Below are positions 4,998 to 63,237 of a stretch of DNA of 64,000 bases, piece by piece (the stretch's first letter is position 1; the number at the start of each line of letters is the position of its first letter). A program made the position numbers and the translations under genes. Under the pieces are notes generated by a model, which saw nothing but the letters and a program-made list of their open reading frames with translations, did not search any database and was not told the origin of the DNA. The stretch is from assembly GCA_964187785.1 (NCBI GenBank), contig OZ076409.1, positions 15,254,001 to 15,318,000 on the forward strand, read 5' to 3'. Source of the DNA: Amphiscolops sp. MND2022 (lineage: Eukaryota).

Positions 4998-5256
4998 TGT
5001 AATACGGCGCAAATATCGATATCGAATCTTACGGTGACATTGCCAATCAAACTTGTTTCGATCAAAAAGAATAGTCAAACAATTTTGATTCGAATGATGC
5101 TTTTTGTTAAAAAATACTATGCTACCGTATCGTGCCTTATCTATGTCATTTGATCTACAACATAGATAGACTATAGAGCATTCATTGATAGATTGCTTGC
5201 TAAAGGAAAAGTCTCAGTTCAAACCCGTTTCATTATTCTAACCAAGATATAGAACA
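4998..5256 (+). repeat. Gypsy 5' LTR
   Basis: Diverged direct repeat of 11000-11252, TGTAATACGG...TATAGAACA. Confidence 0.9.
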
Positions 5257-10999: not shown

Positions 11000-11252
11000 T
11001 GTAATACGGTGCAAATACTGAATCTTACAGTGACATTGCCAATCAAACTTGTTTCGATCAAAACCACTAGTCAAACAATTTAGATTCAAATGATACTTTT
11101 TGTTTGTAAATACCATACTACCGTATTGTGCCCTATTTATATCATTTGATCTACAACATAAATAGACTATAGAGCGTTAATTGATAGATTGCATGCTAGA
11201 GAAAAAGTCTCAGTTCAAACCCGTTTCATTATTCTAACCAAGATATAGAACA
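11000..11252 (+). repeat. Gypsy 3' LTR
   Basis: Direct repeat of 4998-5256, preceded by a polypurine tract. Confidence 0.9.
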
Positions 11253-36899: not shown

Positions 36900-38630
36900 A
36901 TTCAATCACTGTCCGATTTTAGGCATTATTCCACCAGAATACAGTGATTTTAGATCTTTAACGAAAACTCATAACATCCTACCTATGAAGCGGTTTCAGG
37001 AAACACGGTCTTCAATCTTCAATCAGGTAATGGAGCCACTCCATCCGAGAGAGAACACAAAACTCAAAGATGATTTTGATTAATAATAATAAATTTAATA
37101 AAAAAACTAAAAGTAATAGAATAGGCGGATGATATAACAGGAGCAATCAAAACTACTTGAATCAACCGATTGCTAAAAATGTTCGAAATTTTTCTAAGCA
37201 CCGAAAGTACTGGCAATCCATCTGAGATCTTAACAATCGAGAACAATCCCAAATACTGAAGAGAACGAAGAGATCAACCCAAAAGAGAACTACGGACCCA
37301 GAAACAAGGAATGAAATATCGAAAACAAACAACTAAATATCAAAATTCAATATTAAACACACTTCATTCTGAGCCGGAGCAATTAACATTGCAGCTAAGG
37401 CACTTCACAAAACTTGAAATGTCTCGAAAAAATTAAATTCCAAAATTTTAGATAAGTTCTGGCTACAAAAAATATATTGTTAGCCAAGACGAAACACACA
37501 CCAAACAAAGATGGTGGAATAGGTTTAAAAAACTTGAGCAAAGCAGTCTGAGTGGCTAAGATACTAACCTTAGCGAACGAACCTGAAAAAATTTTCAGAA
37601 ATCGAAATAGTTCAAAATGATGACAAATGACTTGACAAAAGACAATGAATAGAGATAATGCGATCATTTTCCATTATTTTTTACATTCCAAAACCTTTCG
37701 GCAAATATTTACACGAAGTCAAAAGAAGTGTATGATTTCCTACACTCTAGCCTGACAAGCATATCGTGCATTCTAAGGATAGTCAAAACTGCTCTTTGCA
37801 AAATATTGACACGAACATTCTAGATTTAAATGTCAGAAAGTTTTGGGAAAAAAGTCAAATCCAGTCCTTTGTTAAAAATTATATCTATCTCTTAATCATG
37901 AACGCGTACTTTGATAAACAAGAAAAGTGGTTCCAAAACTTGGTACCTCATCTAATTGCTTTGCATGTGAAATCGAAATTGAAAGTTGCAACATCTTTTC
38001 TTTGGTTGTGAAAAATATCAAAACACCAAGAAATTTCTCAACATACGAAATTGTCAAGACATGGTTGAAAAACAAGACGACCGCTTAGCAACGGGATATT
38101 TTCCGCTATCAAAAATGTAACGCTCCATTCCGGGTTCGAAGCCATGATCTCGTGCTTGGCAGGCAGACGCACTACTAACTGTGCCACGTTGACTAGTTTA
38201 TTGTTTTACTAAATGGAGTACAAAAAACTGAAGATTTGGCAGAATTTGTAAAAAAATAACCCATCACAGATCATGATTTTACTCCCCCATTCATGTGGCC
38301 GGAAAATAAAACCTCGCTAGCACAGAAACTAGTTGTAGCGCTACTTCTTCCATCGTGGTCGGAATATGAAGGAAAACATTTTTATAAAATATCAAAGCTC
38401 GATGCCAAGTTTAAATATCGACCGCTAACTTCACATAAATGGATGTTGTTATTCCTTTCAATTAGTTTTATTCATTCTTCTAGTTGTCATTCTTTTTGTT
38501 TTTATAATCTTCGAAAAACTTACCAACAATGAACAACCAGTACGTATCACATATTGTAACAATGCTAATTTATATAGCTCAGTGAAAAATATTTTTGATG
38601 TTTCAATAACTGGTAAATAACTTAAATATA
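36900..38630 (+). mobile_element. 5'-truncated, decayed L1/Tx1-like LINE (ORF2 remnant); 3' end abuts SL exon nt 1
   Basis: FNQVMEPL (37018-37041), (Y>stop)ADDIT (37122-37139), thumb DGGIGLKNL (~37510-37536) and zf-RVT-like CFACEIEIES..HLFFGC (37957-38009); interrupted by a short element at 38071-38330. The 5' boundary is approximate. Confidence 0.75.
38071..38330 (-). mobile_element. Short tRNA-like-containing element nested in the LINE remnant
   Basis: Reverse-complement copy of 31185-31477. Confidence 0.55.
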
Positions 38631-39972: not shown

Positions 39973-42337
39973 CACAAGGCGCTATGCTGTCAAAGTGAAT
40001 TCTCTCCAATCTCTTGCTTTTGTGTGAATTTTGCATTGAACGAATTGAAACAAATTATGCTCAAATTGCTACTGAAAAACCACCAAAAAAGCAAATTTCT
40101 AACCACTTTTTGTTAAGTTTGTCTTACGAATTGCCGAAGAACCTTGAAAGATTGTAAATTAGTTAACCAACACGGAGAAAAGTGTTGAAGTTACCATATA
40201 CAAATACCCTAGTTGAGACTGCTTGAACTTCTTACATGCTGCAGGACTGCACGCAGGGTAATTTTTTATAAAACCTGGAAAATTCAGGAAGCATCCGGCG
40301 GTAAATCTTGTAGAATTAGACTGCATTTTCCACTACTGCAATTAAATTTGAAAATATTTCCCGCTTCTTTTCGGATAAGATCACGTTGTATTCACATTTC
40401 ATTATCTCAACTACTCATCTGATTTAATCACCGCTTCTCAAATAGAACACTGAAGATGACGCTAGTTTGTTATTTACATTGTGAATGAAGTTATTTTGCA
40501 TTAAAATGTCGGCAAAATTTTTGACGTCTCAGCTGCATTTAAAATTAGAACTGATGCATAATAAAAGTTGCAGAACTTAACGACCGGAAATTGCCGCCAA
40601 AACTTTGATGATTCGTTCAAGCAGCTTGAGAAAAGTTGATGACAACAGGGAAATAGTAACGCATTAAAGTCTCCGTAGGAGTTTTAGAAAATCATTTAAA
40701 AAGTTGGTGGCAACTTTGAAGAACATGTAAAAAGTTCAAGCAAGTTCAACAAGGGTATACAACCCTCAGAACAAAAAAGGAAATTCAAATTTCTCTAACT
40801 GTTTTTGCCCTGCCTATCTTCGAAAACAAGCCCAAACATTATTATCGAGCGGCATTACCATGGCGGGAAAAACAATTACTCCTTACTCAATTTACGACAT
40901 TTGCAAAACTGAAGCGGGTTACCCCAAAAAGTTGAGAGTGTCTTTCCGAAATTTACCATATTTCTTACCAAGAGGAAAGATACTTCAATCCTAATTTCAT
41001 TCAATTTGAAAAAAATTTCATCAGAAACATCGCTTTCCAAATAGAGGCCGTTTCTTACAGGAATTGCCAGAGCAGAAGGAATTATTGGCACATTGGATGA
41101 AAAAAAAACGATTGAAAGAATGGGCTAAAAATGCAATCTTACTAATATTTGACAGCAATGATGCATTTTTCCAATGCCACTGACCAGCTTCACAATCAAA
41201 CAGAGGCTAGATAGCAATTACGAAGCAGACATTTTTTCCCAGCAAAGATGCACTGAACAAAGAAAAGTCAGAAAATGCCAACGTTGTTGCCGAGAAAAGT
41301 GCCCCAGAATATGTAATAGAAGTGGTGACAGGAAATGCCCAATGTGAAATAAATTTCAAGAAAATGCAGACACAAAAGGCGACCTGGCTCCAATTATTCA
41401 GTGTGATAAAAAAAACAGCAATACAAAGGAGGATAAGGAGACAGAACCTGCCAAGAAAGCAAAACAATCTGAAAAACCAGCATACTATGTAGACAGTATC
41501 AAACGAAAAATCTTTGGTGAAGACGACACGATCAAAGCGTACCCTGAAGCTCAAAACTTGATAGATGAAAGACATAATATCAGAATTGAAGAAGACAACC
41601 AAAAATCAACGAACGAAGTGCTCTATGTAGAGCAGTTATCTATTGAAGGACACGAAACTTTGTTTGAAAACTGTACAGTTTGTTATGATGAAACTTTCAT
41701 TGAATCATAATAAATTAGAATTGAAGAACAAGTGTTCTGCTGTTTTAAATGACGAGAGGCTCACTCTCATTGCTGCTAACATTCATGATGATATCAAGAA
41801 AGTTTATACGCTTCCGACCTGAAAAAAGCACATTTTTAAAACTTTCAAATCCAAGTTTTTCATACGTGTAAAATAGTGCCATACCTCTTAATGAGGTGGT
41901 ACAGTGCACGCAAACTTACCACCATAGTACAAACTTTTGCCATTTGTACTATGAGTGAAACGTAAAAAAATTTCAAAATGTTTTTGAGACAAAACTACGT
42001 TATTTGAACCGCAGACCCTTATTGCACATGAATTTTAATGTACTGTTCCCATTTTCTGGAAGTCTCTTGAACAGCATTCAACGCTCTTAAAACAAGGAAA
42101 ACTTCGAACTCTAGAACTATCTCCTTCCAGGAGCTTTCCAAGAAAAAAATTTGTTTCTTCCTTCATATAAATACATCAAAATCATTCAGCAACCAAGCAT
42201 CTGATACTACCACTTTATGCATTTACTCAATTCATTGAATACATCATAATGCAGTGCTATTTACCACCTGTTAAACTTTATACTTACTATAAAAACTCTT
42301 GATTTATAAAGGCAAATTTTCAATTTACTCCATTAAA
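39973..42337 (+). mobile_element. ORF1-only (HAL1-like) non-LTR element inserted in the SL exon
   Basis: Flanked by 18-bp direct repeats of SL nt 1-18 (39955-39972, 42338-42355); decayed ORF1/RRM-like text LLSSGITMAGKTITP...LRVSFRNLP (~40840-40960); no RT motif seen. Confidence 0.65.
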
Positions 42338-42440: not shown

Positions 42441-42538
42441 AACCTAAAAGTTACGCTTATTTCGACCGCGAAAATTTTCGTAACATTGTAGGTACCTTTG
42501 TTGTTAAGCAAGAAAAGCTACTTGATTCCACAGTGCTC

Positions 42539-42607
42539 GGCTACGACCATACCATGTTGAATGCAACGGTTCACGATCAACCACCGAAGTCAAACAACAT
42601 AGGGTCT
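42539..42607 (+). pseudogene. 5' part of a 5S rRNA gene split by BEL/Pao insertion
   Basis: 5S nt ~1-69; continues at 50953. Confidence 0.88.
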
Positions 42608-43394
42608 TGTAACGGCTGCTTGATCCCTTCACTTGACCAAACTTTACGCCGCCCTGAGTTCGGTGATCGGCACTGCGGATCGTTTCCGAACAGTGCTTGC
42701 TTCTTTTATTGAAAGGACTCTATCTTGACTTAGTAGGATCTAATGATCTCGAATTGCACTTCTTCCTTGTCTCTTAACACGTCCAAATCTCCACAAGTTG
42801 AGAGTAACTAACTTAGTCGTCCCAAGTCTTTGGCGAAAAGACGAAAAGAGGTGAAGAAATGAATTGAGAAAATGTGTTGTCTCGAGACCCGACTTTAATA
42901 CAGCTTTCCAATCAAGTTGTGCCCATCTAGTAATAGTATACATATCGTTTACAAATATTCGATAAATATGAGTTGAAATATGAAGTATAAAAAATGACAT
43001 TTAAAGCATAATATGAAGTTATTGGCTAAGTAAACAAACTATATGGTGGTTCTGACATGATTTTTAGGTAGACTAGAAAGTGTATAACAGTGTTTACATT
43101 TTTGGGACAATGACCTTGTATATCGCACATGCGAAGGGTAAAGGGGTTATAGTGGGTGAATGACCTTGAAAATTAGCCGATGTGTCCATGTTAGGTCGTT
43201 GCATATGTGTGCCAAGTTTCGTGGCTCTACGATTTTTAGTTGTCGAGAAAATCCCAACAGGGGGGAGGTTTCCATTTGGTCCACCTTGACTTTTCATCGA
43301 AATTTCATCTAAGTTATAAGGTGTTTAAGTTCTTGTTTCTCAACTAGCATGTTCCAAATCGAATTTCTCTGCTTTCTGATGACTAGCGCCAACA
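42608..43394 (-). repeat. BEL 3' LTR
   Basis: Direct repeat of 50105-50952 with a ~60-bp deletion; the pol ORF ends inside it. Confidence 0.92.
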
Positions 43395-46300
43395 TTGCCG
43401 GCCCTGTTTTTCTCCCGAAAAACACTTTCAAAGAACAGGGGTGTCAGTTCCACTACTGGTATTTTGAATTCGCCAGCTTTTGTCTTAGCTTTTGATCTGA
43501 CACTGCAATCGCTTCCTTCTTGTACTTCGAATACTCTCGCCATCTTGTTTTTAGACTGCTTCACATTTTCATCCACAACCCAAACCAAATCATTTACTCT
43601 GAGTTGCCTCACACAATCTTTGTTCCATTTATTACGCACGTTCCATTCCGAGAGATATTCCATTCCATTCCGTTCCATGGTCCAGATCATATCTGAATAT
43701 GCTTGCGACACTCTGAATACGCGTCTCAAGTCCGTGTAGCGTTGAGCATCTGTTTGGAAAGGTGTCGCTAAATTTGCTCTTCCCAATAAGAAATGATTTG
43801 GTGTCAAAGCTTTCAGGTCATCTGAATCGTCACTAACACTTGTCAGTGGTCTAGCGTTCAACGTCTGCTCTACTAAGCACATAGTTGTTATGAGAACGTC
43901 GTCTCTCAAGGATCGTCCATCGAGTACAGCTATCATAGCTTTTTTACAACTTCGAACCAATCGTTTCCAGATTCCTCCAAAATGAGGGGCTCCAGGAGGG
44001 TTGAAATTCCACTTGTCATCCTTTTGAGCTAGAGACGTCTCAAAGGCTCACTGATTCCATGCATTTATACAATCTCTCATTTCGTTGGCTGCACCCACAA
44101 AGTTCGTCCCATTATTGCTCAAAATTGTAGCAGGTTTGCCTCTCTGGGCAATAAACCGTGTGATAGCAGTTAAGCAGGTTTCTGCTTTCAAAGATCGGAC
44201 AACTTCGATGTGTACTGCTCTAGTCGTCAAACAGGTGAAGAGACAGCACCATCTCTTCATAGTCTTGCGCATAAATTTAACTTCAAACGGACCAAAATAT
44301 TCAACTCCAGTGTTGGTGTAGGAGAACACTCGTTCCTGCAATCTTTCTCGTGGTAAATCAGCCATAAATGGTTGACACACTCCCGCTTGTTACTTTCTAC
44401 ATTTAACACATTTCGCTTTGACGCTTCTCAGGGCGTTTCGCAATCCAATATTCCAGTATTCTTGAGTTAGAACTCTTCTGACGTATTCTGTGTCTTCATG
44501 AAATTTTGTTTGATGTGTATCTTCAATCAACTTGATGACAACATAATGCTTTGTTGACAACACGATTGGGTGTTTGATTACATAACTTGACTTTGAATGT
44601 TGCAGTCGACCTTGTAGTCGTAGCAAACCATTTTCGTCCAGAAACGGCGATAATTTATTCAACTGATCTGAAACCGACAACGGCTGCCTTTTGGAGATCT
44701 TCTCGAGGGCATCATGAAAACTTTCCTGCTGACAACGCTTCAAAATTGCCAGTTTTGCCGCATTGAGTTCTTCAACTGCCAGAATTCCTTCGAATTTCTT
44801 TTCCCTCCATCTAAGGCAGTATGACAGCACTCGAATCGTTTTCTTGAAAGACCCAAATCTTTCCCTTTTGAATGCGGGTTCCATTACCGCAGCTTCCATG
44901 ACTGGTTCAGGCTCTTCTCGTATGCTAAATTGCAATTTTTCAGTCACCTTAGGCCAGGCGTCTTCTGTCTCGGTGAGTCACGCCGGCCCTGTGAGCCACT
45001 CACTTTCACTTTTTTCAACTGTCGTTCCTCGAGTTCCAATGTCAGCAGGATTCAGTTTTGCTTCACGATGCCGCCATAGTTGAATTTTCGAGATTTTCAG
45101 CAACGCGGTTTGCCACAAAGACCAGTTGTTTGTTGTTGCTTGCTTGAAGCCATTGTAGGACCGTTGTTGAATCTGTCCAATGTATAATTCGGTCTAATTC
45201 AATATCCAAATTCAATTCCAAAACAAGCTCTCGCAGTCCTACTCCAAAAACTGCTGCCTGCATGCATCTCCAACTTAGCCACTGTCATGTTTCGTATTGA
45301 GGCTAACTCTACATTTTCCGATCACAAAAGCGATTTCGCCATTTTCTTGCTTTCTCAAATAAGCAACCATACGCATTGCTTCCAACGAAGCGTCTGAGAA
45401 GACATGTAGATCTGCTTTGTTCACACCTGACTCAAAATATGTTCTTTTGAGTGGCATTTGGTTCACATGTATCATCTCTGATGCCCATCTCTTGAATTCA
45501 TGTCGATTTTTTTCATTCAGTTCTTTATCCCACGACTCTCCGTTCTCCTTCCATATCATTTTCAGTAGCAGTCGCTTTCTTATGGTGAAAGGAGACACTA
45601 TTCCCAGAGGGTCGAATACAGCTGAAACATGAGATAACACCGCCCTCTGCGTTATCTTCACCGGTATCTCTTTCTGCATGCCTCTACAGACTTCCAGATT
45701 GTCTGCGTCAACGTTCCATTGCAGTCCGACAATTGATGGAGAAGTCGGCTCAGCTTCAAAGGTTTTACTACAAAACGGTGACTTGTCTGCTTGGTCGATA
45801 TACATCATAGTCTGTTCGCAGTTGCTAATCCATTTTGTTAAGTGAAAGCGTCCCGTTGCCAACATCGCTCTTAACAATTTGTAGATTTCAATAGCCTGCT
45901 CCACAATGGGAACAGACTTGACAAAGTCATCCATATAGATGGTTCGCCTTATCAGTTTGGTAATACATGGGGACTCCTGTGTGCTATCTCTTGCAACTTG
46001 TTGCAGTGCATAATTGGCGCAAGTTTTGACTCCGAAGATATGTCTTCCATATTCATACACATTTACGGGTTCGTTTGGATTGTCTCTCCATAGAAATTTC
46101 AACACTTTACAATCTTCTGGTGGTACTTTCACTCGGAGGAAAAATAGCTGCAATGTTAGCAGTGATGGCGATCTTTTGTTCTCTAAACCTGAAGAATGTT
46201 CCAATCAGATTCTGCAGTAGGTCCGGCCCTGTCAAGAGGTTATCGTTCAGGGAAACTCAACGGAAGTTTGATGCTGCGTTGCATACTCGCCTCACCTTTC

Positions 46301-49300
46301 CTGTTTTTTTTTGGAGTTTTTACTGGGTGATGTGGAACATACCACTGTCTTTCCAATTTTGTAGCTTCTAACTCTTCTTGATTCAGGATTCTGACGAATC
46401 CCTTTTCAACATCTTCTTTGATAGAGTCTTGATAGAGTGTCTTCAACTCCGGTTTCTTTTCAAGTCTATACTCCAACGATTTCAAATGGCTCAATGCAGA
46501 AGAGTAATTGTTCGGCAAGATGGGGTCATTCCTTTTCCAGAGAAGGCCAACTTCGAATCTTTCACCATCAAACTTTGTGGTTTGTTCTAGCATCTGCAAC
46601 GCTTTCTAATCGTCCCTGGACCTTCGAGATACATCACAACGGGATGCATAGGCTTCAATGTCCCACCAAGTTTTAATCTGTTCTGCCAACACGTCATCTT
46701 CAGAAGCTGTTACGCAAGATGCAGGCATCTGCACATCTTCTTGCTGTGAAAGTGGTCCACAGAGAGTCCATCCAAGTTTCGTTTTCACTGCCCACGTCTC
46801 ATCATTCGTGCCGCTTTTATATTCTTCAGGCCAATGTATATGTTAGAAAATCTGTCCCAATATCCTTTTTACATCTTTGAGTTTCAATGTTTCTTCGCTT
46901 AGCACTGACAAATGAGGATAGGCATATTTGAGCTCCCGATAGTCGTATATCTTTGATCCGACGTCTATGTTTGCGTGCGTGTAGACTGTCATGTGATGTG
47001 TGTTGCTCCTTGCCTTCCCACGAATTCCCACGGTGGGTCGTTCACATTTCACTTCATTTGTCCCATGCATTCCAGCCACACTCAGATCAACTTATTGACC
47101 GTGAGCATTTAATTTGTCAGCTAATTCCTTGTTTATGAACGATAGGCTCGCTCCAGAGTCACACAGCGCCAAAGTTGATTCTTGTTTTTTCCCAATTTGC
47201 ACGATGACGGGTACAACAGGCAGTATTCCACGGCTTTTCAGCAAGCAAAATGCTGAATTTGCCTCCGTTTTCTGCTGTGGGTCTTCCGATCCACTTTCTT
47301 TCTGCCGTTCATTCGCCTCGCGATGTAGCAATCGATGATGCCGCCTGCTACTACTTTTGACTCCACACGCTTTGTAAGTGAAATCTTTCACCACATGTTT
47401 TCGAGCCAAGCAACCAAAGCAGAAATTCAATTCGTTGGCTTTTTCATATCGTGCTTGACAAGTCATCTTCAGAAACTTCTCGCATTTCCCCAAAGGACGT
47501 TTACCATCTTTCAATGGACAATCATGACCAGTCTTCTTGTTGGGGCTATCGTCAGCAAAGGTTGAGAACGTAGAGTGGTTTGGCTTATCTTTACGTGTCC
47601 ATTTCGATTTGTCTGCGTTGGAATTGCCTGTCATGAGAACATCTTGCTTCATTGCTGCTATCTCTTGCAACCATGCGTTGAACGCTTCCAGCCTCATGTA
47701 GTAGCTGGCATTTTGTCTCGTGTAAGTCAGCTATTTTGTTTTCATGTTCAATGGCGGTTTTCTGGTCGCACTACTCAGGACGTCTTCTGACTGCAAGTCT
47801 CCAACATAGTTCATCTGCGTCAGAACTTGTACAAAACTTTAAACTATTCTTGAGTATTAGACCAATGCTACAGAGTGGTACGCTTTCACTAGTGGAAAGG
47901 TGTAAATTCGTCTCCGTTGTGCGTTAGCTACAACTTGTGGTCTCGCAAAGTGCGCACTCAAGGTATTCCACGCAACATCATACAAGTCTCCAGTGTAGCC
48001 TAGTCCAGCTATTACTTCCTTTGCCTTTCCAGTGACCAGCGTTTTGAGGTGATTCATCTTCAGACTTGTGTCAATGTCCGCAGTATGTACAGTCGAGAGG
48101 AACAACCCTGACCACTCGGGCCATTCCAATGGGTCACCTGAGAATTCTGCTAACTTCAGTTTTGGGAGACGGGCTGGTAGACTCATGTTTTCAATACTTG
48201 TGGGTCCGAAATGACTATGTGGGGGTGCAGTGAGGCTAACAGGGGGTGAAACATGTGGCGTTACCGTACCATTTCTCACATTGTTATTCGCTGTTGGCTG
48301 ATTCGGAAGTAAATCATTTCCAAACTGAACATGTTGTGGCGCAGCCCTCTTCAGCGTTACATGAGCTACCTTCGGGACAAAGAGATTACCCGAGTTGCCC
48401 ACGTTTGCTACTGTTGGCTGTGCCATCTTACCAGCTGGTTGAAACAACTTCGTTGTATGCGGCAATGCACCAGGTTGTTGTTGCATGGGTACGCTGGCTA
48501 GGGCGATTCTGCATACATCATTCCCATTCTTCGTTAACTTATCATCAACTTCGATTTGATCAAGCCAAGAAGGTACCTTTTCAAACGAATCGCAATAGAT
48601 GGGTACTGGGGAGCAACTTGTATTTGCTCGGCTACTTCCCGCTTGAGCTATTTCTTTTTCCTTTTCTGAGATTTGTAAGCCTCTTGCCTTTTCCTCTTGG
48701 AGTTTAGCGCATTCTCTAGTTCGTCTGTGGGTTTATCCATTTCCTCATGTTTCTTTCGGATTTCTTTGCAGCTAGTTGTTCATCAATTTCTTCTTGTTTC
48801 TTCATTGCTTCCAGTTCTAGGAGCATCACTTGCTTTGTAGTAGTTGACTTCGAACTAACTGATGTTCAGTTGCCTCTTGAATGTGCCTTGCTTGCACACT
48901 GATCTCTTTCTTCAGGTAGCGAATTCACCTCATTACCACAACGATTCACAAAGGAATAGGGTCCATCGGTACCTTGTGCCACTTCTTCATTCGCATTCTT
49001 CTGAGGAGAAGTGTCGCGGGACTTTAGTTGTTGCTCTTGCTAATTCACCCTAGCACGGCCATGATTCCCTCCATACGATGCAACTCACTGTAGATTGAAG
49101 TATCTCCACTGTCTTTCAACAACTCATCCAACTCGGCCACAATTTTATCTCTCCTTTTGAGAGTTTCTTCGTTTGTTTCTACCAATGCTTTGTAATCCTC
49201 TGAGTTGCAAAGAGTTTCCCGATTTTTATTGATTTCATCTCCGTTTTTTTGAAACATTTCATCACATTTCTCTTTGGAGTTTTGAAGTTGTAGGAACTCC

Positions 49301-50104
49301 TTCAACTGTCCATCATTCTTTAGGCTCCTCATCATTGTGAGCACCTGACCAATGTTTTTATGTCGTGTTTCCAAGGAATCTAATTCATTCCGATATTTGC
49401 AGAATCGGTCGGCTTTACTATCCGACCATTCTGGCTGATACTTGGCTTTCAAGAGTGCTGTGTTCGCCGCGACGAGTCTCTTCCATCTGGGCAGTAGGTC
49501 TTGTCGGCTCGGTAGAAGGTCTGCGAGTTTCTCCTTCGTCACGTCTGCTTTGCGTAGCTCAGCATGTATTTCATCCATTTTTGTCTCAAAGTTTTGAATT
49601 GCTCTCATGTTGCTCTCCCATTGTGGCTTGTCCATAGAACTCTTGAAATGGTTTTCAATTCTTTTGTAATCAATTTTCTTAGGTTCAGCCGTTTTGAACT
49701 AGCTCAAAACCCCAGAGTACACTAAAAGAACCAAAGAGTCCACATTTTGCTGTGAATACAATTCTCAACAAGCCGATGAAGTTGCCCAAAACCCCAGTGT
49801 ACACTATATACCCAAGAGCTCCAGTAATACCACTTCTAATACAATATCCCAGAGCCTGCAGAAGTAGCCCAAACCCCATAGTACACTAAACACAGAGGAG
49901 AGCCCAGATGTGACCACTTTGCTGCACACACAGTTTTGCAAAGATCACCACCAGTCGTCGTTCACTGTACACGTTCACTTGTTGGCACGGTGCTTGTCTG
50001 GCTGTGTAGCAATCAGACAATCTTCCAGTTGTCCGTCCAAATGATGATGTCCGCGCAATTGATTATGTCTGCCCAATTGATGATGTCCGGGTCGGCGGAC
50101 CAAA

Positions 50105-50952
50105 TGTAACGGCTGCTTGATCCCTTCACTTGACCAAACTTTACGCCGCCCTGAATTCGGTGCTCGGCACTGCGGATCGTTACCGAACACTGCTTGCTTA
50201 GATTAAAAGGACTGTATCTTGACTTAATAGGATCCAATGATCCCGAATTGCTTTTCTTCCTTGTCTCTTAACACGTCCAACTCTCCACAAGTTGAGATAA
50301 ACTAACTTAGTTGCCCCAAAGTCTTTGGCGAAAAGTCGAAAGGTTGTGAAGAAATGAATTGAGAATATGCGTGGTCCTGAGACCCGACTTTAATACATCT
50401 TTCCAATCAATTTGTGCCTATCTAATAATGGTATACATATTGTTTACAATTATTCGATAAATAGGAGTTGAAATATGAGGTATAAATAAATGACATTTAA
50501 AGCATAATATGAAGTTGTTGGCTAAGTAAACAAACTATGTGGTGGTTCTGACATGATTATAAGGTAAGCTAGAAAGTATGTTTACACTATATAAAGATCA
50601 TTAATTTCAACAGAGTTACATTCTAATGTGGTCATATAGATAAATAACAGTGTTTACATTTTTGGCACAATGACGTTGAATATCGCACAAGTGAAGGGTA
50701 AAGGGGGTTAAATTGGGTGAGTGACCTTGAAATTTAGCCGGTTTGTCCGTGTTAGGTCGTTGCATATGTGTGCCAAGTTTCGTGGCTCTACGACTTTTAG
50801 TTGTCGAGAAAATCCCGACTGGGAGGTTTCGAGTTGCTCCCCCTTGACTTTTCATCAAAATTGCATCTAAGGTTAAAAGTGTTTAAGTTCTTGTTTCTCA
50901 ACTAGCATGTTCCAAATCGAGTTTCTCTGCTTTCTGATGACTGGCGTCAACA
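50105..50952 (-). repeat. BEL 5' LTR
   Basis: Direct repeat of 42608-43394, followed on the minus strand by the PBS. Confidence 0.92.
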
Positions 50953-51008
50953 AGCCTGTTTTGTACTTGGATGGGAGACCGCTTGCGAACACCAGGTGTT
51001 GTAACCTT
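50953..51008 (+). pseudogene. 3' part of the split 5S rRNA gene
   Basis: GTACTTGGATGGGAGACCGCTTGCGAACACCAGGTGTTGTAACCTTTT. Confidence 0.88.
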
Positions 51009-51189
51009 TTCTGTCAAAAACGTGGTTTAACTTCTGTGACAGTTCTTCAAAATGGGTCAAAGTGAAAAGATTGCAGAAAACAGACAACGCCATTGGAAAG
51101 AATGTTCAAAAACCCCCCTGCTAAAGTTTTTTACGCTATCAATTGAATATTCCTTGAGTTAGATTTTTTTTAAACTCTAAATCTTCACG

Positions 51190-52827: not shown

Positions 52828-52946
52828 AGGCTACAACACCTGGTGTTCCCAAGCGGTCTCCCATCCGAGTACTAACCAGGCCTTATGTTGTTTAACTTCG
52901 CTGATCGGACGAGAACCGGTGCATTCAACATGGCATGGTCGTACCC
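52828..52946 (-). rRNA. 5S rRNA
   Basis: 119 nt, near-consensus, oligo-T terminator. Confidence 0.95.
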
Positions 52947-53044: not shown

Positions 53045-53166
53045 AATGCAGACTAAATTGTTGCTTGTTCAAAAATTGGGCAGCAGTCCACTTTCGCAGT
53101 CTGCTTTCAAGTAAAACTATCAATAGGGTTGGAATACTTACCTATTTATTAAGTTTGTCACAACAA
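53045..53166 (-). ncRNA. Putative SL RNA gene (nt 8 onward; nt 1-7 displaced to 59352-59358 by the Helitron)
   Basis: Exon part 53166-53142, GTAAGT 53141-53136, stem GCAGAC/GGACTGC, canonical Sm site AATTTTTGA 53077-53069. Confidence 0.78.
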
Positions 53167-53334
53167 TCATGTACATTTAAAAAGGGAGGCCGAACAAATT
53201 CGCTGATTGGTTGAGATACGCTCGGTGATACGCGCTGCTGCAATACAGTTCAAAAGAAGATTCCGAGATGAGCTGTGAGAAAATGTGTTGCTGAATTTCG
53301 AAATAGACGTTTCAGAATCTCCAACTCTCATCAA

Positions 53335-56300
53335 CAGTGGATATCGTAGAGGTTGCGTGTTAGACTCTCAAACCAAAATCTTGAGTTTGATTCTCGCCAT
53401 CGATCTTTTTTCAAAAAACGTCAGCATGAACAGTCTTTTAAAGCGTGAACAGACTTTGGCCTTTCTTTTCCTGGATCACTCAAACGTCAAGACTGTCAAT
53501 GCTTTTAGAAACCAAAATCCGTGTGTTGTCGGAAAAGAGGCGTCCACTATCATGGAGTTTGAATCAACAACCGATAGCGTAGAGGTTGCGTATCAGATTC
53601 TCATTCCAGTGTCTTGAGTTCGAATCCCTCTGTCAACATGTTTTCCAAAGTTTTACTTCTGATTTTGTAATGCTAAGTTCACTATCACATAGCTGCAATC
53701 AACTGTGGATGGTGCAGAGGTCGTGTAACTATCTTTTAAACAGCGTGAACAGTCTTTTAAAAGCATTGGTGTTCGTCTTTTTTCTTAATGGTGCGCTTGC
53801 AACTACTGTTCAGCAAGAGATCGTGGCCTAGAGGTTGCGTTGGTTGTCAGGTTCGTCGGGTGTTATTCTGGTAGCTTTGGGTTCGGTCCCCGGAAATGAC
53901 ATGGTTCAGCACTTGAATTGATAGTGTTATGGCTTAAACCCAACTTGATTGTTCATTTCGACACATACCGTATAGAGGACTCTAAGTTCGTTCATTATTC
54001 GAATACGAATGCTTACTTTTGGAAGCGGCAAAATTTTTAACATAAAGATTTTTGAACTCCTTCCAATAACGTTGTCCATTTTTTCACATCTTTTCAACAG
54101 TCAATGGCGTAGTGGTTGCGCGTTTGATTTCCATTCCAATGTCTTGAGTTCGATTCCCTCAGTCTTTTTGTGAAAATTTGTTAGCGTGGACAGTCGTTCA
54201 AAAGCACTGGAATATTCCATTTTCTTAAAAGTGCGCCTAAAACCACTGTTTCGCAAGATATCGTGGCCTAGAGGTTGCGTTGGTGGTTAGATTTGGTATA
54301 GCGTTTTCTGGTATCTTTGGGTTCGGTCCTCTGGGAAGGAATTTGTTCCGCACTTGAATTGATAGAGTGTTTTTGCTTACACCCAACTTAGTTGTTTAGT
54401 TCGACAAATACCGAATATAGCATTCTGAATTCGTCCAAAATTTGAATTAGAATGCTTACTTTGGAAGCGGCAAATTTTTCAACATAGGGATTTTTGGACT
54501 CTTTCCAATAACGTTGTACATTTTTTCACATTTTTTCAACAGTTAATGGCGTAGTGGTTGCGTGTTGAATTTCCAGTCCATTGTCTTGAGTTCGATTCCC
54601 TCAATCAATGTTTTCAAAACGCTGTCAGCGTGGACAGTCTTTCAAAAGCGCTGGAATTTTCTTATCTCTTAGTAGTGCGCCTAAAACCACTGTTCCGCCA
54701 GATATCGTGGCCCGAAATTGTTTACGTTGGTGGATAGGGTCGTTAGAGTTTTTTTCAACAGTTAATGGCGTAGTGGTTGCGTGTTAGATTTCCATTCCAA
54801 TGTCTTGAGATCGATTCCCTCAATCAAAACTTCTTTAAAAACGTTGTCAGCGTGGACAGTCTTTCAAAAGCACTGGATTCTTCCTAACTCTTAGTGGTGC
54901 GCCTAAAACCACTGTTTCGCAAGATATTATGGCCTAGTGGTTTTCGTTGGTGGTTAGGTTTGGTATAGCGCTGTTCTGGTATCTTTGGGTTCGGTCCCCG
55001 GGGATGGAACTTGTTCCGCACTTGAATTGATAGAGTGTTATTGCTTACACACAACGTGGTTGTTTACTTCGACACATACCGAATATAGCATTCTGAATTC
55101 GTCCAAAATTTGAATTGGAAGCGGCAAAATTTTCAACATAGGGATTTTTGGACTCTTTCCAATAACGTTGTACATTTTTTCACATCTTTTCAACAGTCAA
55201 TGGCGTAGTGGTTGCGTGTTAATTTTCCAGTCCATTGTCTTGAGTTCGATTCCCTCAATCAATTTTTTAAAACGCTGTCAGCGTGGACAGTCTTTCAAAA
55301 GCGCTGGAATTTTCTTCTCTTAGTAGTGCGCCTAAAACCACTGTTCCGCAAGATATCGTGGCCTGAATTTATTTACGTTGGTGGATAGGATCGTTAAAGT
55401 TTTTATGTGTTTGTTGTCTAGCTTTGTCTTTTTCGAAGGCCATTGAAATCCATGAACTGCGTGTTTTCAGGTGAGATGTCCACCATCATCAACCGAGAGC
55501 GTAGAGGTTGCGTACTAGCCTCTCATTTCGATGTCTTGAGTTCGATTCTCTCTATCAACTTTGTTTTTCAAACTTCTAATTCCCTCACCTAATGGTAAGT
55601 TCACTATCACGTAGCTGCAACCAACAGTGGACGGTGCAGAGGTCGTGTACTAGGCTCTCATAACAACTGCTTGAGTTCGAAACCCTTTGTCAACTTTTGT
55701 TTTGCAACGAATGCGATTGTGATTCTGCAACATTGTCACCGAAGTTAAACCACGTTTTTTGATAAAATCGAAAAACCACAAATTTATAACAACATTAATT
55801 AACGACAAATGCAGATAACATTCATTGGAACGCAACATGAACTACAACATGGACGTTTTCGCGGACGACTTTTCTAAAGGCTGTGTCTTTTTTTCCAACT
55901 TTTCACATTGATCCACTTTGCAACACTGTCACCGAAGCTAAACCTCACTTTGTGACGAAGTGCATATAAGGAATAACACAGTGAAGATCCCAAAGAACGC
56001 GGCAAAACTTTCATCGTGGGGGTTTTTTGAACGCTTTTTCCAGTGGTGCTCTTCAATTTTTCACATCTTTTCATATTGACCCACTTTGCAAAACTGTCAC
56101 CAAAGTTAAACCACGTTTCTTGACAAAAAAGCTACAACAGCGTGGGAGTTTCAGTGGACGCTCTCTCTGAAGCTGTTGTCTATTGTGTTGCATCTTTTGA
56201 ACTTGACTAAGTTTCAAAGTAAGTTGAAACCTGTTGTGTTCACTATCATACATCATGTATTTGGAATCAAGAGTCAATGGTGCAGAGGTTGTGTACTAGG

Positions 56301-58070
56301 CTCTCATAACAATCGCTTGAGTTCGAAACCCTCAATCAACTTTTCTTTTTCGGAGTATGCCATCGTGATTCTGGAACATTGCCTGCAACGGTAAACCACG
56401 TTTTTTGACAAAGTCGATAAAGTCCACGAAATCAACTGCAGACATAATTCAGTCAACATTCCTTAGAAGGCAGAAACATTTCCAAAATTCGTAGTAGTTT
56501 GATTTTTTTCCAATGCCGTTATACATTCGTTTTCATTAAATAGGATCTTGATTCATTTGCAACAGTGTCACCAAAGTTAAACCACATTTTGTGGCGAAAT
56601 GAAATGATGTCATAACTTGGTGCGTATTCAATGGACCATGAGCGCAACCATCACAACGTCTGAATCAGCTGAAGTGTGACGATAAAGCCATTATTACAGA
56701 ACAAGCGTTCAAAGTGCCAGGTAGCACAGTAGTGAAATTGCTGCAGCAGAATTGAACTCTGAAGTGTGGTGTGATATTGAAGTGTTCAGCATATGAGCCA
56801 TAAATGATCGATTCCAAGTACCTCGCATTGTTTCATGCTACTTTTTGTTACTTGGATGAAGTTTCAGAATTGGGCGCCAGCCCGACGGCTGGCTTTGCTA
56901 CCACTCAGGCCTTTGAAAACTGGTTAAGGCCCAAAGATCCTGAGGGTCAAACTTGGTTATCCTCTTCTGTCGATTCCGCTTCTTTGGGGAGGCGCTTCTT
57001 GGGGAGAGGAATAGTCCAACACGGCTATAATACGTTGACTGCGCTTTCGTCTTGCTCTCTTTCGGACTCAAGGATCCTCAAGGGTGTCGGTTATTGGTTC
57101 GAGCGGAATCAATTTCATAGCTAGCAAATTATGTTTCTGAAGTTTTCAACGCGAGACTTAATTCATCCCCTCTGACTTTTCTGGGGCAGCTTCGAGTGAT
57201 TGGTTATACTCAAACATGTGTAGAGTCAAAAAAACTATATCCGAATAGATTTTTGTAATGAAGTGAATTCTTATATATCTGCGTACGTAAAGTCTGTGCT
57301 TATGTAAAGTCGGAAACAATAGACATACGGGCGATGCAAATTCGTTATGGCACAGGCGTTAACCACTATCACGGAGCTTGAATAAACAACCGATAGCGTA
57401 GAGGTGACGTATCAGGCTCTGCTTCCAATGTTTTCAGTTCGATCCCCTCTATCGATCCTTTTCTTTCAAATATTGCCAGCGTGAACATCTTTTCAAAAGC
57501 ACTGTTTTATTCTTTCTCTTAGTGGTTCGCTCACAACCACTCTTTTGCAAGATATTGTGGATTAGAGGTTACATTGGTGGACAGGTTCGTTAGAGTGTTG
57601 TTCTGGTAGCTTTGGGCTCGATCCTCGTGGTGGACTTGGATCCGGACTTGAGTTGATTGTTTGGTTTTCCTTCCATCCAACTTAGTTGATTAATTCGGCA
57701 TAGACCATCAAAGGCAAAAGTTGTTGAAATATTTAATACCAAAAATTCCTTTGGACTTTGGCCTTTCCTTTTCTGGATTGCTCAAACGTCAAGACTGAAA
57801 ATGCGTTTAGAAACCAAAATCCGTGTGTTTTCGAAAAAGAAGCGTCCACTATCACGGAGTTTGAATCAACAACCGATAGCGTAGAGGTTGCGTATCAGAC
57901 TCTCATTCCAATGTCATGAGTTCGAACCCCACTGTCAACATTGTTTTCCAAAGTTCTACTTCTGATTTTCTAATGCTAAGTTCACTATCACATAGCTGCA
58001 ATCAACTGCGGATGATGCAGAGGTTGTGTACTAGGCTCGCATAATAATCGCCTGAGTTCGAAACCCTTAG
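53335..58070 (+). repeat. Array of degenerate tRNA-like (A-box/B-box) cassettes inside the Helitron
   Basis: More than 15 units, e.g. 53575, 53820, 54103, 54260, 54545, 54765, 54928, 55200, 55495, 55630, 56278, 57393, 57555, 57877, 58013, each TRGCGTAGTGG-like ... GAGTTCGATTCC-like. Confidence 0.8.
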
Positions 58071-58279
58071 TCAACTTTTATTTTGCGAAGAATGCAATCG
58101 TGATTCTGCAACATTGTCACTGAAGTTAAACCATCTTTTTTGAAACAGTCGATGAACCACAAAAATATGACCAACCTAATTAACGGAACAAAGCAGATAA
58201 CATTTATTGGAAGGCAACATAACCTACCTCATGGTTAGGTATGATTTTACCTTTTATAAATTCTCAGGCCGATTTTTCG

Positions 58280-58824
58280 AATGCCGAAGCGCTGATAGAA
58301 CACTGGAAGTAGCGGACCAATGTAGATTTCCCGTGGAATATCTGAACACATTGAATCCATCTGGTCTTCCACCACATATGTTACAGCTGAAACCAGGTTG
58401 TTTGATCATTTTGCTGCGTAATCCTAACCCTATTGTCGGTGTGTGTAATGGGGCGTGGTTGATTCTAATCGCAATAAGCCGACACAGTTACCTCGAAGCT
58501 ACTTTGATTGGTCTAAACCTTTCTGGGTCAGACGTGTTGATACCACGTATCAATTTGACCACAGAACAAGTCTTCGACATGCCAGTAATTTGGGTTAGAA
58601 GACAATTTCCCATACGTCCCGCATTCGCAATGACAATCAACAAAAGTCAGGGTCAAACCTTTGACAAAGTTGGGTTGTACTTGGAAGAACCTGTATTTTC
58701 TCATGGTCAATTGTATGTTGTTTTATCCCGATGTTCATCTGCTGCCAACCTTAAAATATTTTTACCACCCAAAGATGATGGCACTTTTTGGACGAAAAAC
58801 GTAGTTGACAAAAAAAATTTTTGA
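58280..58824 (+). pseudogene. Helitron RepHel PIF1 helicase C-terminal fragment
   Basis: FPVEYLNTLNPSGLPPH, RRQFPIRPAFAMTINKSQGQT, VFSHGQLYVVLSR, TKNVV; no Rep domain or N-terminal helicase motifs. Confidence 0.9.
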
Positions 58825-59799
58825 GTATCAGTCCCTTTTAAATAGCACCCAAGCTAATCACTGGTAGTTTAGGGGAGTAAAATCAAAGGACAAGATTAGA
58901 TGTTTTGACAATCTAACACATGAATTTTGTGTTTTGTGCTCATCTTTTGTTTTGCAATCAACTTTTTTTGTGCTCTAATCAACAGTGGATAGCGTTGTGT
59001 TGTTCTGGTAGCTTTGTGTTCGAGCTCTAAGGTGGACTTCGATCCGCACTTGAGTTGATAGAGTCTTATGACTTCACCCAACTTGGTTGTTTAGTTTGAC
59101 AATTACCATACAAGGCAAAAGTCGTGGAACACTTTGATACCAATAATTTGAATGGATTTTGGGCTTTCCTTTTCTAGATAGCTCAAACGTCAAGACTCTA
59201 AATGCGTTTAGAAACCGAAAACCGGGTGTTTTCGGGAAAGAGATGTTCACAATCACGGATAACAGTTTGGAGTATAATCATCCACTTTTTGATACCTCAT
59301 ATCCATTAAACCTCTTTAATTAGTCGCCGTAGTCGGCAGCGGGTTTGCTAGTTAGGCTAAGAGAAAAGAGTCAATTTTTTGGAGGGCGAGACTCCTATCT
59401 GCGGTACTGAAGCCAACAACTTGTTTTGAGGGGAAATTATCATAAAAAGACAACGTTTCAAGTTTCTGACATCTGAGGAAACCAAAATATTTTAGAAAAT
59501 CTGTGCAAAAGCAAAATTTTGACTCCATTACGAAAATGTATGCTGAAAAGCATAAATTAGTAAGCTTAAAAATGAAATTTCATGTACTATCAAAAGTCGA
59601 CTAAGGAGTCTGAAAAACACGTTTTAGGGGTAATTTTGGGCCTTCTTTCCAATGCCGTTGTCCGTTTTTTTTGCTATATGTTCATTTTGACTCCTTTTGC
59701 AAAACTGCCACCGAAGTTAGAACACATTTTGTGAAAAGTGTAAAATGACATAAATCAATGAAAATTCAATTGATGGCGGCAAAAATTTCAGCATTGTCG

Positions 59800-60654
59800 T
59801 GTAACTAGGCTCTCATATTATTCGCTTGAGTTCGAAATTCCTAGTCAACTTTTATTTTGCGAAGAATGCAGACGTGATTCTGCAACATTGTCACTGCAGT
59901 TAAACTACGTTTTTGAAACAGCCGAATAACCACAAAATTTTGACAAACCTAATTAACGGTAAAAAGCAGATAACATTTATTGGAAGGCAACTTAACTTAC
60001 CTCATGGCTAGGTATGGTTTTACCTTTTATAAACTTTAAGGCCACTTTTTCGAATGCCGCAGCGCTGATAGAACACTGGAAGTAGCGGACCAAGGTAGAT
60101 TTCCCGTAGAATATCTCAACACATTGAATCCATCTGGTCTTCCACTACAAATGTTACAGCTGGAACTAGGTTGTTTGATCATTTTGCTGCGTAATCTTAA
60201 CCCATCTGTCGGTTTGTGTAACGGGGCGAGGTTGATTCTTAACGCAATAAGCAGACACAGTTACCTCGAAGCTACTTTGATTGGTGCAAACCTTTCTGGG
60301 TCAGACGTGTTTATACCACGTATCGATTTAACCACAGAACAAGACTTCGACATGCCAGTAAATTGGGCTAGAAGGCATTTTCCCATACGTCCCGCATTCG
60401 CAATGACAATCAACAAAAGTCACGGTCAATCTTTTGACAAAGTTGGGTTGTACTTGGAAGCACCTGTATTTTCTCTTAGTCAATTGTATATTGCTTTATC
60501 CCGATGTTCAACTGCTGCCAACCTTAAATTACATTTACCACCCAAAAATGATGGCACTTTCTGGACGGAAAACGTAGTTTACAAAGAAATTTTTTGAGCA
60601 TCAGTCTCTTTTAAAAAGCACCCAAGCTAATCACTGGTAGTTTAGGGTTTAATA
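59800..60654 (+). mobile_element. Second, 5'-truncated Helitron copy with PIF1 fragment (ORF 60124-60597)
   Basis: Duplicates ~58025-58875; ends with hairpin ACCCAAGCTA/TAGTTTAGGGT and ATAG, followed by TTAGGCT (SL nt 7-1). Confidence 0.78.
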
Positions 60655-60661
60655 GTTAGGC

Positions 60662-61220
60662 TAAGAGCAAAGAGTCAATTTTTTGTAGCGCGAGACTCCT
60701 ATCTGCGGTACTGACTTACCATTACCAGCCAACAACTTGTTTTGAGGGGAAATTCTCATAAAAAGACAACGTTTCGAGTTTCTGACATCTGATGAAACCA
60801 AAGTATTTTACAAAAACTGTGCAAAAGCAAAATTTTGACTCTATTACGAAAATGTATGCTGAAAAGCATAAATTGGTATGCTTAAAAATGAAATTTCATG
60901 TATTATCAAAAGTCGACTCAGGAGTCTGAACAACACGTTTTAGGGGTAATTTTGGGCCCTCTTTCCAGTGCCGTTGTCCGTATTTTGCTATCTGTTCATT
61001 TTGACTCCTTTTGCAAAACTGTCACCGAAGTTAAACCACATTTTGTGAAAAGTGTAAAAACGACATAACTCATTGAAAATTCATTTGATGGCGGCAAAAA
61101 TTTCAGCATGGGGGTTTTTTGGACGCTCTTACCAATGGCGTTGTCCGTTTTTTGCTATCTTTTCAATTTCACACAATTTGCAAAACTGTCACCAAAGTTA
61201 AACCACATTTCTGACAAAAA
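60662..61220 (-). repeat. Intergenic spacer of the SL/5S unit (copies at 59359-59795 partial, and 63205-63763)
   Basis: ~560-bp near-identical repeats with an internal ~170-bp subrepeat. Confidence 0.88.
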
Positions 61221-61339
61221 AGGCTACAACACCTGGTGTTCCCAAGCGGTCTCCCATCCAAGTACTAACCAGTCCCTATGTTGTTTATTTTCGGTGATCG
61301 GACAAGACCCGGTGCGTTCAACATGGTATGGTCGTAGCC
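61221..61339 (-). rRNA. 5S rRNA
   Basis: 119 nt with oligo-T terminator; a few substitutions. Confidence 0.95.
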
Positions 61340-61444
61340 GATCGTTGTAGAATCAGGTAGCTTTATATGCTTAACAACAAAATTACGTACAATGATACAA
61401 AAATTTTCTCGATCAAAATACGCGTAACTTTTAATTTAGTGCAG

Positions 61445-61567
61445 ACTAGCTTGTTCCTCGTTCGAAAATTGAGATTTAGACCACTTTTGCAGTCAGCTTT
61501 CAAATGAAACCTATCAATAGGGTTGGAATACTTACCTATTTAATAAGTTTATCATAATATTTAGGCT
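61445..61567 (-). ncRNA. Putative SL RNA gene copy (mutated)
   Basis: 32-nt exon 61567-61536, GTAAGT 61535-61530, Sm-like AATTTTCGA 61470-61462. The 3' end is approximate. Confidence 0.75.
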
Positions 61568-63186
61568 TTTGAAGACTATATTGAATGCTGAGGATATACA
61601 AGTACAAAGTAATGAAGTCTAAAGTATAGGTATAAATATCTGAGTATATGAGTAATTGAGGTATGTAAATGAATATGCTTGGTTACTTAATATCAGCGCC
61701 AAAATATTTGAGAGTAAATATAAAAAGCGCCAAATTTGAAATGAAGTTGGTATAATGTAGTTTGGAGAATGTATGAGAAGAGGTTGTTTGCTCCTGGAAG
61801 GAGTTTGTTTTGAAATTCAGTTTTTTTTGCACACAGTACTAGTAGTGTTTGAAAAGAATCGGGAATTGGGTTGGTTGGTGATGGGCATGTAAAGAAATAG
61901 GAATTCGAAAGTTCAGTCGAACAATGTCTGAATTTTTTCAGTTTTTGTTTTCATTGTATAAGTTTTCAATTGCTGTGAAAACTTGCACTTTTCTATTCTC
62001 CAATTTGATAGTGTAAACGTGGTGGTTTGTAGCGTCATAGAAAGGACCAAACTTTCGGATCATTGTGTAAAATTCAAAGTGAGAATATAAAACTGTGTTA
62101 GAGTCAGAATGTTTCCAGTTTGATTCAGATAAAAGATCTTCAATTTTTGTTTTCTTCAGTGGTTGCCCTAGTGAAAACGTCCCTTGAATTTTCTTTTCCT
62201 TGTCCAGTAAATTGATGTAACCAGACGTTTGCTGGGTTTTGATCATGTTCTTTTATAGCAGGTAATTCGTTGAAAATTGTTTCTGGTGCCAAAATTTTGT
62301 TTAGTTTCTTTTCCAAGAAAAAAGGCTATTCATGCTTTGCAGTTGACTGTTGATCAGTTGTTTGACTTTGGGAAATTTCTGCTGAGAATGTCCATTCAGT
62401 TGAGCGATGCATTAGTTCAGGTTTTTGCATAGGAAGTGTATCTTTTTTTTGAGTTGTCAATCCATGGTTCTTCAGTTTCTTCTACGTTGTTATTGCATTC
62501 CATTTCAGCACCATCATCGGCCTGCTTTGGCTTCTTTGAAATTGGTTCAGCATCATTTAAATATGACAATTCAGGTTCATTAGATATTGGCTCTGTTTCT
62601 GAAGGTTCCATAACGTAGTCTGTTGTTAACTTCTGGTTCTGAGATTTACTGTTTTTCCGTATCTGTTGTTCGTCTGGTAGTTGTTTTGGGCATCTTGATT
62701 GTTGATGAGCACTTGGAAGGTTCTCTCTGGCACATAAAAGGCAATCGATGAGTGGGAGACAGCAGCATTTGAAAACAATGCGACTGGATGTAAACGTTTT
62801 GTCATATGCATTATTAGCCCTGTTGCCTTATTACCTTTGTTGCGTAAAATTGTAGTTTTGAAAATGGTAATTTCATTGAAATTTAGTCGTTTTTTGACCG
62901 TAATAACAGCTTCCACAAACATTGAATCCAGTAATTTGATGTTTTTGAACATGTCAGATGTCAGGGGTAAAGCAAAGTTGGCAATAATTGGTTATTTGTC
63001 CATATTTGAGTTCGATTTCGATAAGCAAACAACTGCATTTTTGTAACAATTTTGTTCAACGCTTTCATTATGATGTTGATCGAGCTCATTCGTGTTCAAA
63101 TTAGTCATTACTTTTGCCACTTTTGTTGCAAAATTTGCAAGATGGCGCTGTGCAAACAAAGTTTGCAGGGTAACAGAATAACGCCG
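61568..63186 (-). mobile_element. ORF1-only (HAL1-like) non-LTR element inserted in the SL exon
   Basis: 18-bp direct repeats of SL nt 1-18 at 63187-63204 and 61550-61567; gag-type knuckle CLLCARENLPSAHQQSRC (~62743-62690); 5' end GGCGTTATTCTGT resembles GGCGCTATGCTGT of the 39973 element; no RT motif seen. Confidence 0.68.
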
Positions 63187-63237
63187 TATCACAACAATTA
63201 GGCTAAAAGCAAAGAGTCAATTTTTTGGAGCGCGAGA

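Follow-up and report, generated by a model that had tools for sequence, protein, structure and literature searches.

A decayed non-autonomous Helitron at an A|T site in a spliced-leader exon, and a possible preference of its lineage for that site

In this work, a dead non-autonomous Helitron (copy A, 53167-59351) was found in the first exon of a spliced-leader (SL) RNA gene, between an A and a T, inside an array of 5S ribosomal RNA (rRNA) and SL RNA genes. The array lies in a 64-kb stretch of contig OZ076409.1 from Amphiscolops sp. MND2022 (positions 15,254,001 to 15,318,000; hereafter the window, from whose first letter all positions are counted). Our tentative reading, which we hold at somewhat less than an even chance, is that the lineage of this element prefers to insert at the SL exon site. 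In a fuller form, put forward with the same reserve, an acoel family of rolling-circle (HUH) Helitrons would insert sequence-specifically into the SL exon, a multicopy RNA gene as in the case of R2, NeSL and Dada. Long residence in the array would have made array DNA a part of the untranslated regions of these elements, and L1-like long interspersed nuclear elements (LINEs) would also target the exon's first 18 bases.

Copy A is a non-autonomous Helitron of the canonical type. It starts with TC, ends in a CTRR motif, lies between A and T without having duplicated the target, and carries a remnant of a RepHel-related helicase. The 5' junction reads ACAACAA|TC at 53166/53167, and at the 3' junction the terminal CTAG (59348-59351) is followed by TTAGGCT. 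The unsplit sequence ACAACAA|TTAGGCT is present at 63191-63204 and in a metagenomic SL gene (locus L053), and excision of copy A in silico regenerates it exactly. The original prediction, made from the letters of the window, that TC at 53167 and CTAG at 59351 divide an SL exon is thus borne out by the junctions and by the unsplit site. The element is antisense to the SL and 5S genes, both of which are on the minus strand. The features of this unit and the empty site are the following:

52828-52946, minus strand: 5S rRNA gene of the unit with copy A (Rfam RF00001, 97.3 bits; 7/119 differences from the 5S gene of L053)
53069-53166, minus strand: SL RNA gene without its first 7 nucleotides (nt); the remainder of the exon is 53166-53142
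53167-59351, plus strand: Helitron copy A, non-autonomous, 6185 bp, 5' TC and 3' CTAG
58267-58824, plus strand: C-terminal remnant of a Pif1-type helicase in copy A (PF21530, E 3e-13), in a frame open from 58201
59326-59337, plus strand: GC hairpin near the 3' end of copy A, 12 nt, ending 14 nt before the terminus
59352-59795, minus strand: SL nt 1-7 (59358-59352) with the upstream spacer of unit A, which a deletion truncates at 59795
63187-63204, minus strand: nt 1-18 of the SL exon, A|T intact (empty site), the 5' copy of an 18-bp duplication around 61568-63186

The helicase remnant amounts to 185 C-terminal codons and is 42-54% identical to the 120 longer relatives listed, many of which are RepHel proteins with PF14214 (Helitron domain); relatives with PF14214 and PF05970 are among them. 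Copy A contains no other open reading frame (ORF) of at least 120 amino acids, and a complete RepHel with its Rep (HUH) domain is not present in it. The fold of 59310-59352 has -6 kcal/mol (z -1.5), and 19 of 200 shuffled sequences folded as well; the canonical palindrome has 16-20 nt and lies about 11 nt from the end. The segment 56620-57350 of copy A matches nothing else in the window, lacks a long ORF and is unexplained cargo. Within the 64 kb, no Helitron copies were found outside the array.

The SL first exon, read on the minus strand, resembles the leader of the acoel Symsagittifera roscoffensis (bioRxiv 10.1101/2022.08.27.505549; PMC9911081; this and the other published sources are cited from excerpts). 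A scan of metagenomic contigs with part of the published acoel leader as query returned 103 loci. In 88 of them the leader stands at most 33 nt from the contig end and before unrelated sequence, that is, at the 5' ends of unrelated messenger RNAs (mRNAs), as in trans-spliced transcripts. Fifteen loci were treated as genomic and three of these are true SL genes; in L053 the intact SL gene is followed by a 5S gene. Rfam identifies five 5S genes in the window, each adjoined by an SL-type gene. Given the match to the published leader and the metagenomic leader, SL and 5S loci, it is likely that the window carries the 5S and SL array of an acoel worm. The exon is followed by a GT donor at 53141-53140, as in an SL RNA gene, and at 53077-53069 the gene has an Sm-like site, AATTTTTGA, which we take to agree with the Sm consensus. 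The SL RNA beside copy A differs from the majority of the three metagenomic SL genes at 7/93 positions.

The exon had been described as split between nt 7 and 8. This numbering is right for a leader whose first base is the A of AGCC; with the published leader, which starts GCC, the split is between nt 6 and 7. Among the 103 metagenomic contigs, three start a further six bases upstream. Transcript contigs L010, L020, L042 and L003 have a six-base extension upstream of AGCC (24 bases in one of them) that resembles the SL gene's 5' flank, so the true start of the acoel leader may lie upstream of the published one. When the Helitron helicase and DNA were compared with the 103 metagenomic loci, there was no helicase match, and the sole likeness was a spacer motif of 47 nt in L053. 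In viral contigs the junction pattern had one 18-nt chance match with no wider likeness, and SL-donor patterns had no matches in viral and prokaryote genome contigs.

An indication of an earlier association comes from array-derived DNA inside the element, which is interspersed with modules resembling transfer RNA (tRNA):

53338-58080, plus strand: ten or more decayed tRNA-like modules, A-/B-box-like, with Gly/Glu-like anticodon loops, in internal repeats
54019-55193, plus strand: three spacer-like pieces (54019, 54462, 55106), shorter and embedded in tandem repeats
55915-56145, plus strand: distal array spacer and 5S 3' end, colinear (spacer model E 1.9e-40), in the orientation of today's 3' flank
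58098-58156, plus strand: spacer-like motif upstream of the helicase; the counterpart in copy B (described below) is 59871-59929

A model built from array spacers only gave nine matches inside copy A at E < 1e-5, all in the present 3'-flank orientation. At this threshold nothing in the window matched beyond the array units and the element, and shuffled sequences reached at most 4.8 bits. The piece at 55915-56145 is identical to the spacer of unit B at 167/218 positions and 64-70% identical to the older units at about 39 and 51 kb. This interior piece is the older one, with 51/218 differences from spacer B as against 26/441 between spacers A and B. The shorter pieces and the piece at 55995 have CACAT where the arrays have GCTAT or GCAAT, a common trait of three bases. 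Furthermore, the motif upstream of the helicase is identical to the array motif at 38/57 positions in copy A and 38/56 in copy B (E 0.00038 for the latter). Being one-third diverged and common to both copies, it would have been present before they separated. Since the element arrived with array DNA that was already old, we infer that its ancestor sat in a 5S and SL array in the same orientation. Thus, it is likely that the Helitron lineage was an earlier resident of such an array, in a recurring association.

The spacer-like pieces alternate in copy A with the tRNA-like modules, for which nhmmer gave 11 matches in copy A, one in copy B and none elsewhere in the window. Ten aligned modules are 59-92% identical in pairs. 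They were rejected as functional tRNAs because the Rfam tRNA score is 23 bits, below the gathering score of 29, and ARAGORN predicts no genes; a tRNA cluster or a short interspersed nuclear element is a candidate source.

Another Helitron 3' end, that of copy B, lies in the neighbouring unit of the array:

59796-60655, plus strand: Helitron copy B, 3' part only, equivalent to 58023-58874 of copy A plus the last 8 nt
60656-61217, minus strand: SL nt 1-7 (60662-60656) with the complete spacer of unit B
61221-61567, minus strand: next unit, with 5S gene (61221-61339) and SL gene, without Helitron; another insert splits the SL gene

A second 3' end joined to TTAGGCT had been predicted at 60654. 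The junction is real and falls at the same base as in copy A, but the last base of the element is 60655 and its last four are ATAG, one change from CTAG. Copy B, whose helicase is at 60040-60597, is identical to copy A at 772/851 positions. It has no 5' end; its first base, 59796 (58023 in copy A), directly adjoins the spacer of unit A. After it inserted, copy B therefore underwent one or more further deletions, with loss of the 5' part, the 5S gene and the 3' half of the SL gene. Copy B tracks copy A up to a GGG (58874 in A, 60647 in B) and then lacks 58875-59343, a segment of 469 bp that includes the GC hairpin of copy A. The terminal 11 nt, GGGTTTAATAG in copy B and GGGTTTGCTAG in copy A, match at 9 of 11 positions, and the internal continuation of copy A after the GGG, GAGTAAAA, is unlike the end of copy B. 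It is likely that the end of copy B is a deletion form of the copy A terminus, with the deletion between two GGGs, and the deletion possibly arose during transposition. The placement of this end is not unique: the aligner set five bases at 59315-59319, MAFFT left the short end unplaced, and a match of copy B to the copy A end at three of five bases, given the final TAG, has a chance of 0.13. A weak hairpin in copy B (z 0.07) closes at the GGG.

Two other relations between the ends were rejected. Copy B cannot be an earlier stop at a terminator internal to copy A because the bases after the common GGG differ, and copy A is not a read-through of the copy B end because the last 8 nt of copy B are absent at 58875. 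The two copies had been described as ending at different termini. This holds in that copy B lacks 469 subterminal bp and ends in ATAG, but hardly for the last 11 bases, which agree at 9. As a reason for independent events the argument fails, since an end that reads as a deletion form of the other does not show independence.

Close relatives of the helicase were sought at similar length (8000 candidates scored), and among the best 120 of 2710 matches they are P0122, found on one contig of 249 kb, and P0123, found on four; the helicase protein of the window itself lies on a 676-kb contig. The presence of relatives on other contigs suggests that the family was mobile or amplified beyond the window locus. 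P0122 has the same non-helicase N-terminal join as the window copy. It shares seven sites with copy B, including the loss of a conserved HG, while sites common to A and B in this way are absent, and the clade has support of 96/93; copy B thus appears closer to P0122 than to copy A. At 52 columns that are at least 90% conserved in 120 relatives, copy A departs at five, copy B at eight and the nearly intact P0123 at one, the last of which fits a master element that stayed functional later. The single identical departure of A and B also occurs in P0122 and P0123 and is a family trait, as it is common to all four members. The helicase regions of A and B differ at 48/555 nt, evenly across codon positions, with dN/dS of 0.93. 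Because the departures at conserved columns are few and not shared, and the divergence is neutral, the helicase of the A/B ancestor appears to have been intact, and to have decayed neutrally since then by about 4-5% per copy.

The insertion of copy A also appears to be young, as the clocks of the 5S gene (7/119), the SL RNA (7/93) and the helicase agree; the first two are counted against functional metagenomic genes, and some of the changes are species differences. One old insertion resident since the uptake of the spacer was rejected, the helicase being too intact: in a decay simulation at 12-15% decay, 25-30% of residues were changed and the frame stayed open in 6-10% of runs. The identities between spacers are 415/441 for A and B, 408/441 for A and C, and 422/454 for B and C. 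When sites were polarised with the older unit at about 39.5-40 kb, four supported AB, five AC and three BC, which is an unresolved star. A comparison with spacer trees had been suggested earlier, and by this count it does not group the Helitron-bearing spacers as a clade.

We hypothesize that copies are placed antisense to the SL exon by an autonomous RepHel partner, which would recognise this exon or the region in which the SL gene starts. The loss of one SL gene would be tolerated because these genes are multicopy. Copies in tandem units would gain spacer and 5S DNA through deletions or nested insertions that connect the 5' end of one copy with the 3' end of a later one, and the younger join of copy A, spacer and copy B illustrates such a process. 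A descendant with array cargo would later have inserted into the unit at 53167. Copy B may have inserted separately or may be a duplicate that arose early from copy A, and either is compatible with a preference for the exon.

Several observations weigh against such a preference. The flanks of the junctions are known from the 64-kb window only, which holds two 3' junctions at one base; they come from one complete insertion and one further 3' junction, and the terminus of copy B is no proof of independence. P0122 may be an allele or haplotig of copy B (175/197 amino acids identical), and a direct test gives little backing to the shorter branch of P0123 (4 vs 12 private changes, p 0.077). The interior of the element yielded neither proximal spacer nor an old SL junction, and the clade of interior pieces has support of 80/86 and is not starred. 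None of the three metagenomic genomic SL genes from the 103 loci, probably of other species, holds this Helitron. The star of spacers A, B and C is also expected from a duplication soon after a single insertion. Moreover, the spacer of L053 is 65% identical to that of unit B and the genes are about 95% alike, and such a fast turnover of spacers weakens dating by spacer distance.

A rival account, which we consider unlikely on balance, is the following. An ordinary Helitron would have inserted by chance at the A|T of one SL exon and been duplicated soon afterwards by unequal exchange; copy B would be a deleted duplicate, P0122 its allele, and the interior array DNA the result of an unrelated capture or local rearrangement. 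Helitrons need only A|T (PMC4067079), deletions are abundant in the region, and copy B has the terminus of copy A with a GGG-bounded deletion and no 5' end. The neutral divergence of A and B and the spacer star would follow as well. On the other hand, two coincidences are needed, old array DNA of the same orientation in the A/B ancestor and the landing in the exon. No neutral change at conserved columns is shared by A and B alone, so the duplication would have to be nearly immediate. The distance between the two Helitron copies (79/851) is also larger than that between their spacers (26/441; p 0.04), though the spacers may be constrained. The choice between a target preference for SL genes and one insertion amplified with the array, as it was framed at the outset, is well posed; the termini do not decide it, and the other evidence shifts the odds to a repeated association.

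The association could be with the array and not with the exon, which we regard as improbable. The element would hop locally in or near 5S and SL clusters, or would be held there by a putative RNA polymerase III tether through its A and B boxes, and the A|T of the exon would be incidental. The old spacer and 5S cargo, the 12 tRNA-like modules found only in the element, and the absence of a relic SL junction inside it agree with this. However, only 4 of the 66 AT dinucleotides of a 905-bp array unit are in the SL exon, so a random A|T would fall there in about 4/66 of cases, and the modules are decayed and below the Rfam threshold. It is very improbable that 53167-59351 consists of the remains of several array units, or arose as an artefact of assembly, and is bordered by TC and CTAG by chance. 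The interior is a mosaic with deletion joins, the hairpin is weak and the sequence is known from the assembly alone, but removal of the segment restores the exon exactly, the ends are canonical with a RepHel C-terminus not far from the 3' terminus, and the N-terminal join recurs in P0122 on another contig. With 9% between them, A and B are too divergent for a collapse or duplication error. Thus, a preference of the lineage for the SL exon site is the reading that we tentatively retain.

Other elements were also found at the SL exons. L1-like LINEs have 3' ends that abut SL exon nt 1 in the window (37283-38630, plus strand), in L028 (238-2928, minus strand) and in L041 (509-3118, minus strand), so that two of the three metagenomic genomic SL genes carry them. 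L028 and L041 encode a reverse transcriptase, and their proteins are about 69% alike; the L041 protein is closest to human L1 ORF2p (188 bits, vs 123 bits for R2). The relative in the window is decayed and ends at 38630. An SL-specific family of the L1/Tx1 type in acoels is probable on these sequences, and it is better supported than the Helitron case; no such family was found in a literature search. Unrelated decayed inserts at 61568-63186 (minus strand) and 39973-42337 (plus strand) are each flanked by an 18-bp duplication of SL nt 1-18 and end in a short A run before the exon; they are likely to be truncated SL-targeting retrotransposons. In total, five of the six or seven SL copies of the window are disrupted within nt 1-18. 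In nine genomic loci (L024, L068, L073, L016, L025, L033, L047, L054 and L071), LINE-like ORFs directly follow a complete SL exon that has no donor, and in L024, L068 and L073 an endonuclease and a reverse transcriptase are seen behind it. These LINEs were apparently copied from SL trans-spliced RNA. A BEL/Pao long terminal repeat (LTR) retrotransposon at 42608-50952 (Peptidase_A17, DUF1759, DUF5641; LTRs about 90% alike) interrupts a 5S gene, the halves of which are at 42535-42610 and 50953-51010. The window also has a weak match to a protein-primed DNA polymerase at 271-2065 (E 0.006) and a direct repeat at 4998-5256/11000-11252 (88%); 271-2065 and 4998-11252 are possibly a Polinton-like remnant.

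If the preference proposed here is true, it would bear on how RepHel chooses a target beyond A|T, as a natural case in which to test how a eukaryotic HUH transposase recognises its target. It would also bring a third chemistry to the elements that shelter in multicopy RNA genes, and give a hint at a site-specific integration tool; if there was a single insertion, the locus amounts to a decayed array of the ordinary kind. The literature search found no Helitron reported as specific to an RNA gene. This is a weak negative, as most subscription journals and Repbase were outside its scope and a paper on Paramecium Helitrons was also missed. The PMC9911081 supplement does not mention Helitrons, and the excerpts of the review PMC13269885 contain nothing further on target-specific ones.

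Canonical Helitrons (Helitron1/HLE1) require only A|T for insertion, and copy A resembles them in its 5' TC, 3' CTAG, A|T site without duplication and Pif1-type helicase, as well as in its internal tandem repeats and captured host DNA (PMC4067079); its modest hairpin may correspond to their subterminal one. It differs in that the two visible 3' ends fall on the same base within a multicopy RNA gene, and in that the cargo derives from the array of the target gene itself. Among DNA transposons, Dada and Pokey occupy fixed sites in multicopy RNA genes (small nuclear RNA, tRNA, 5S, 28S; PMC8869645; PMC3706591), but they use cut-and-paste enzymes of the DDD/E type, and the excerpted text of PMC8869645 names no Helitron and no SL target among RNA-gene-targeting DNA transposons. 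The SL exon is a known target of non-LTR retrotransposons such as NeSL, which shares the target and differs as a retrotransposon with a restriction-like endonuclease reported only from nematodes (PMC4640811). A precedent for target-specific Helitrons is given by Paramecium aurelia, in which they were proposed to insert specifically into telomeric repeats (PMC13085455). In that proposal, which is similar to the one made here, a single host repeat is used in a fixed orientation, satellites lie between the ends and the ORF, and the cargo upstream of the ORF was attributed to nested insertion and deletion. The Paramecium Helitrons, however, form a separate third clade with many copies in a simple telomeric repeat, whereas here a canonical-type remnant has an RNA gene as its target and is seen at two junctions.

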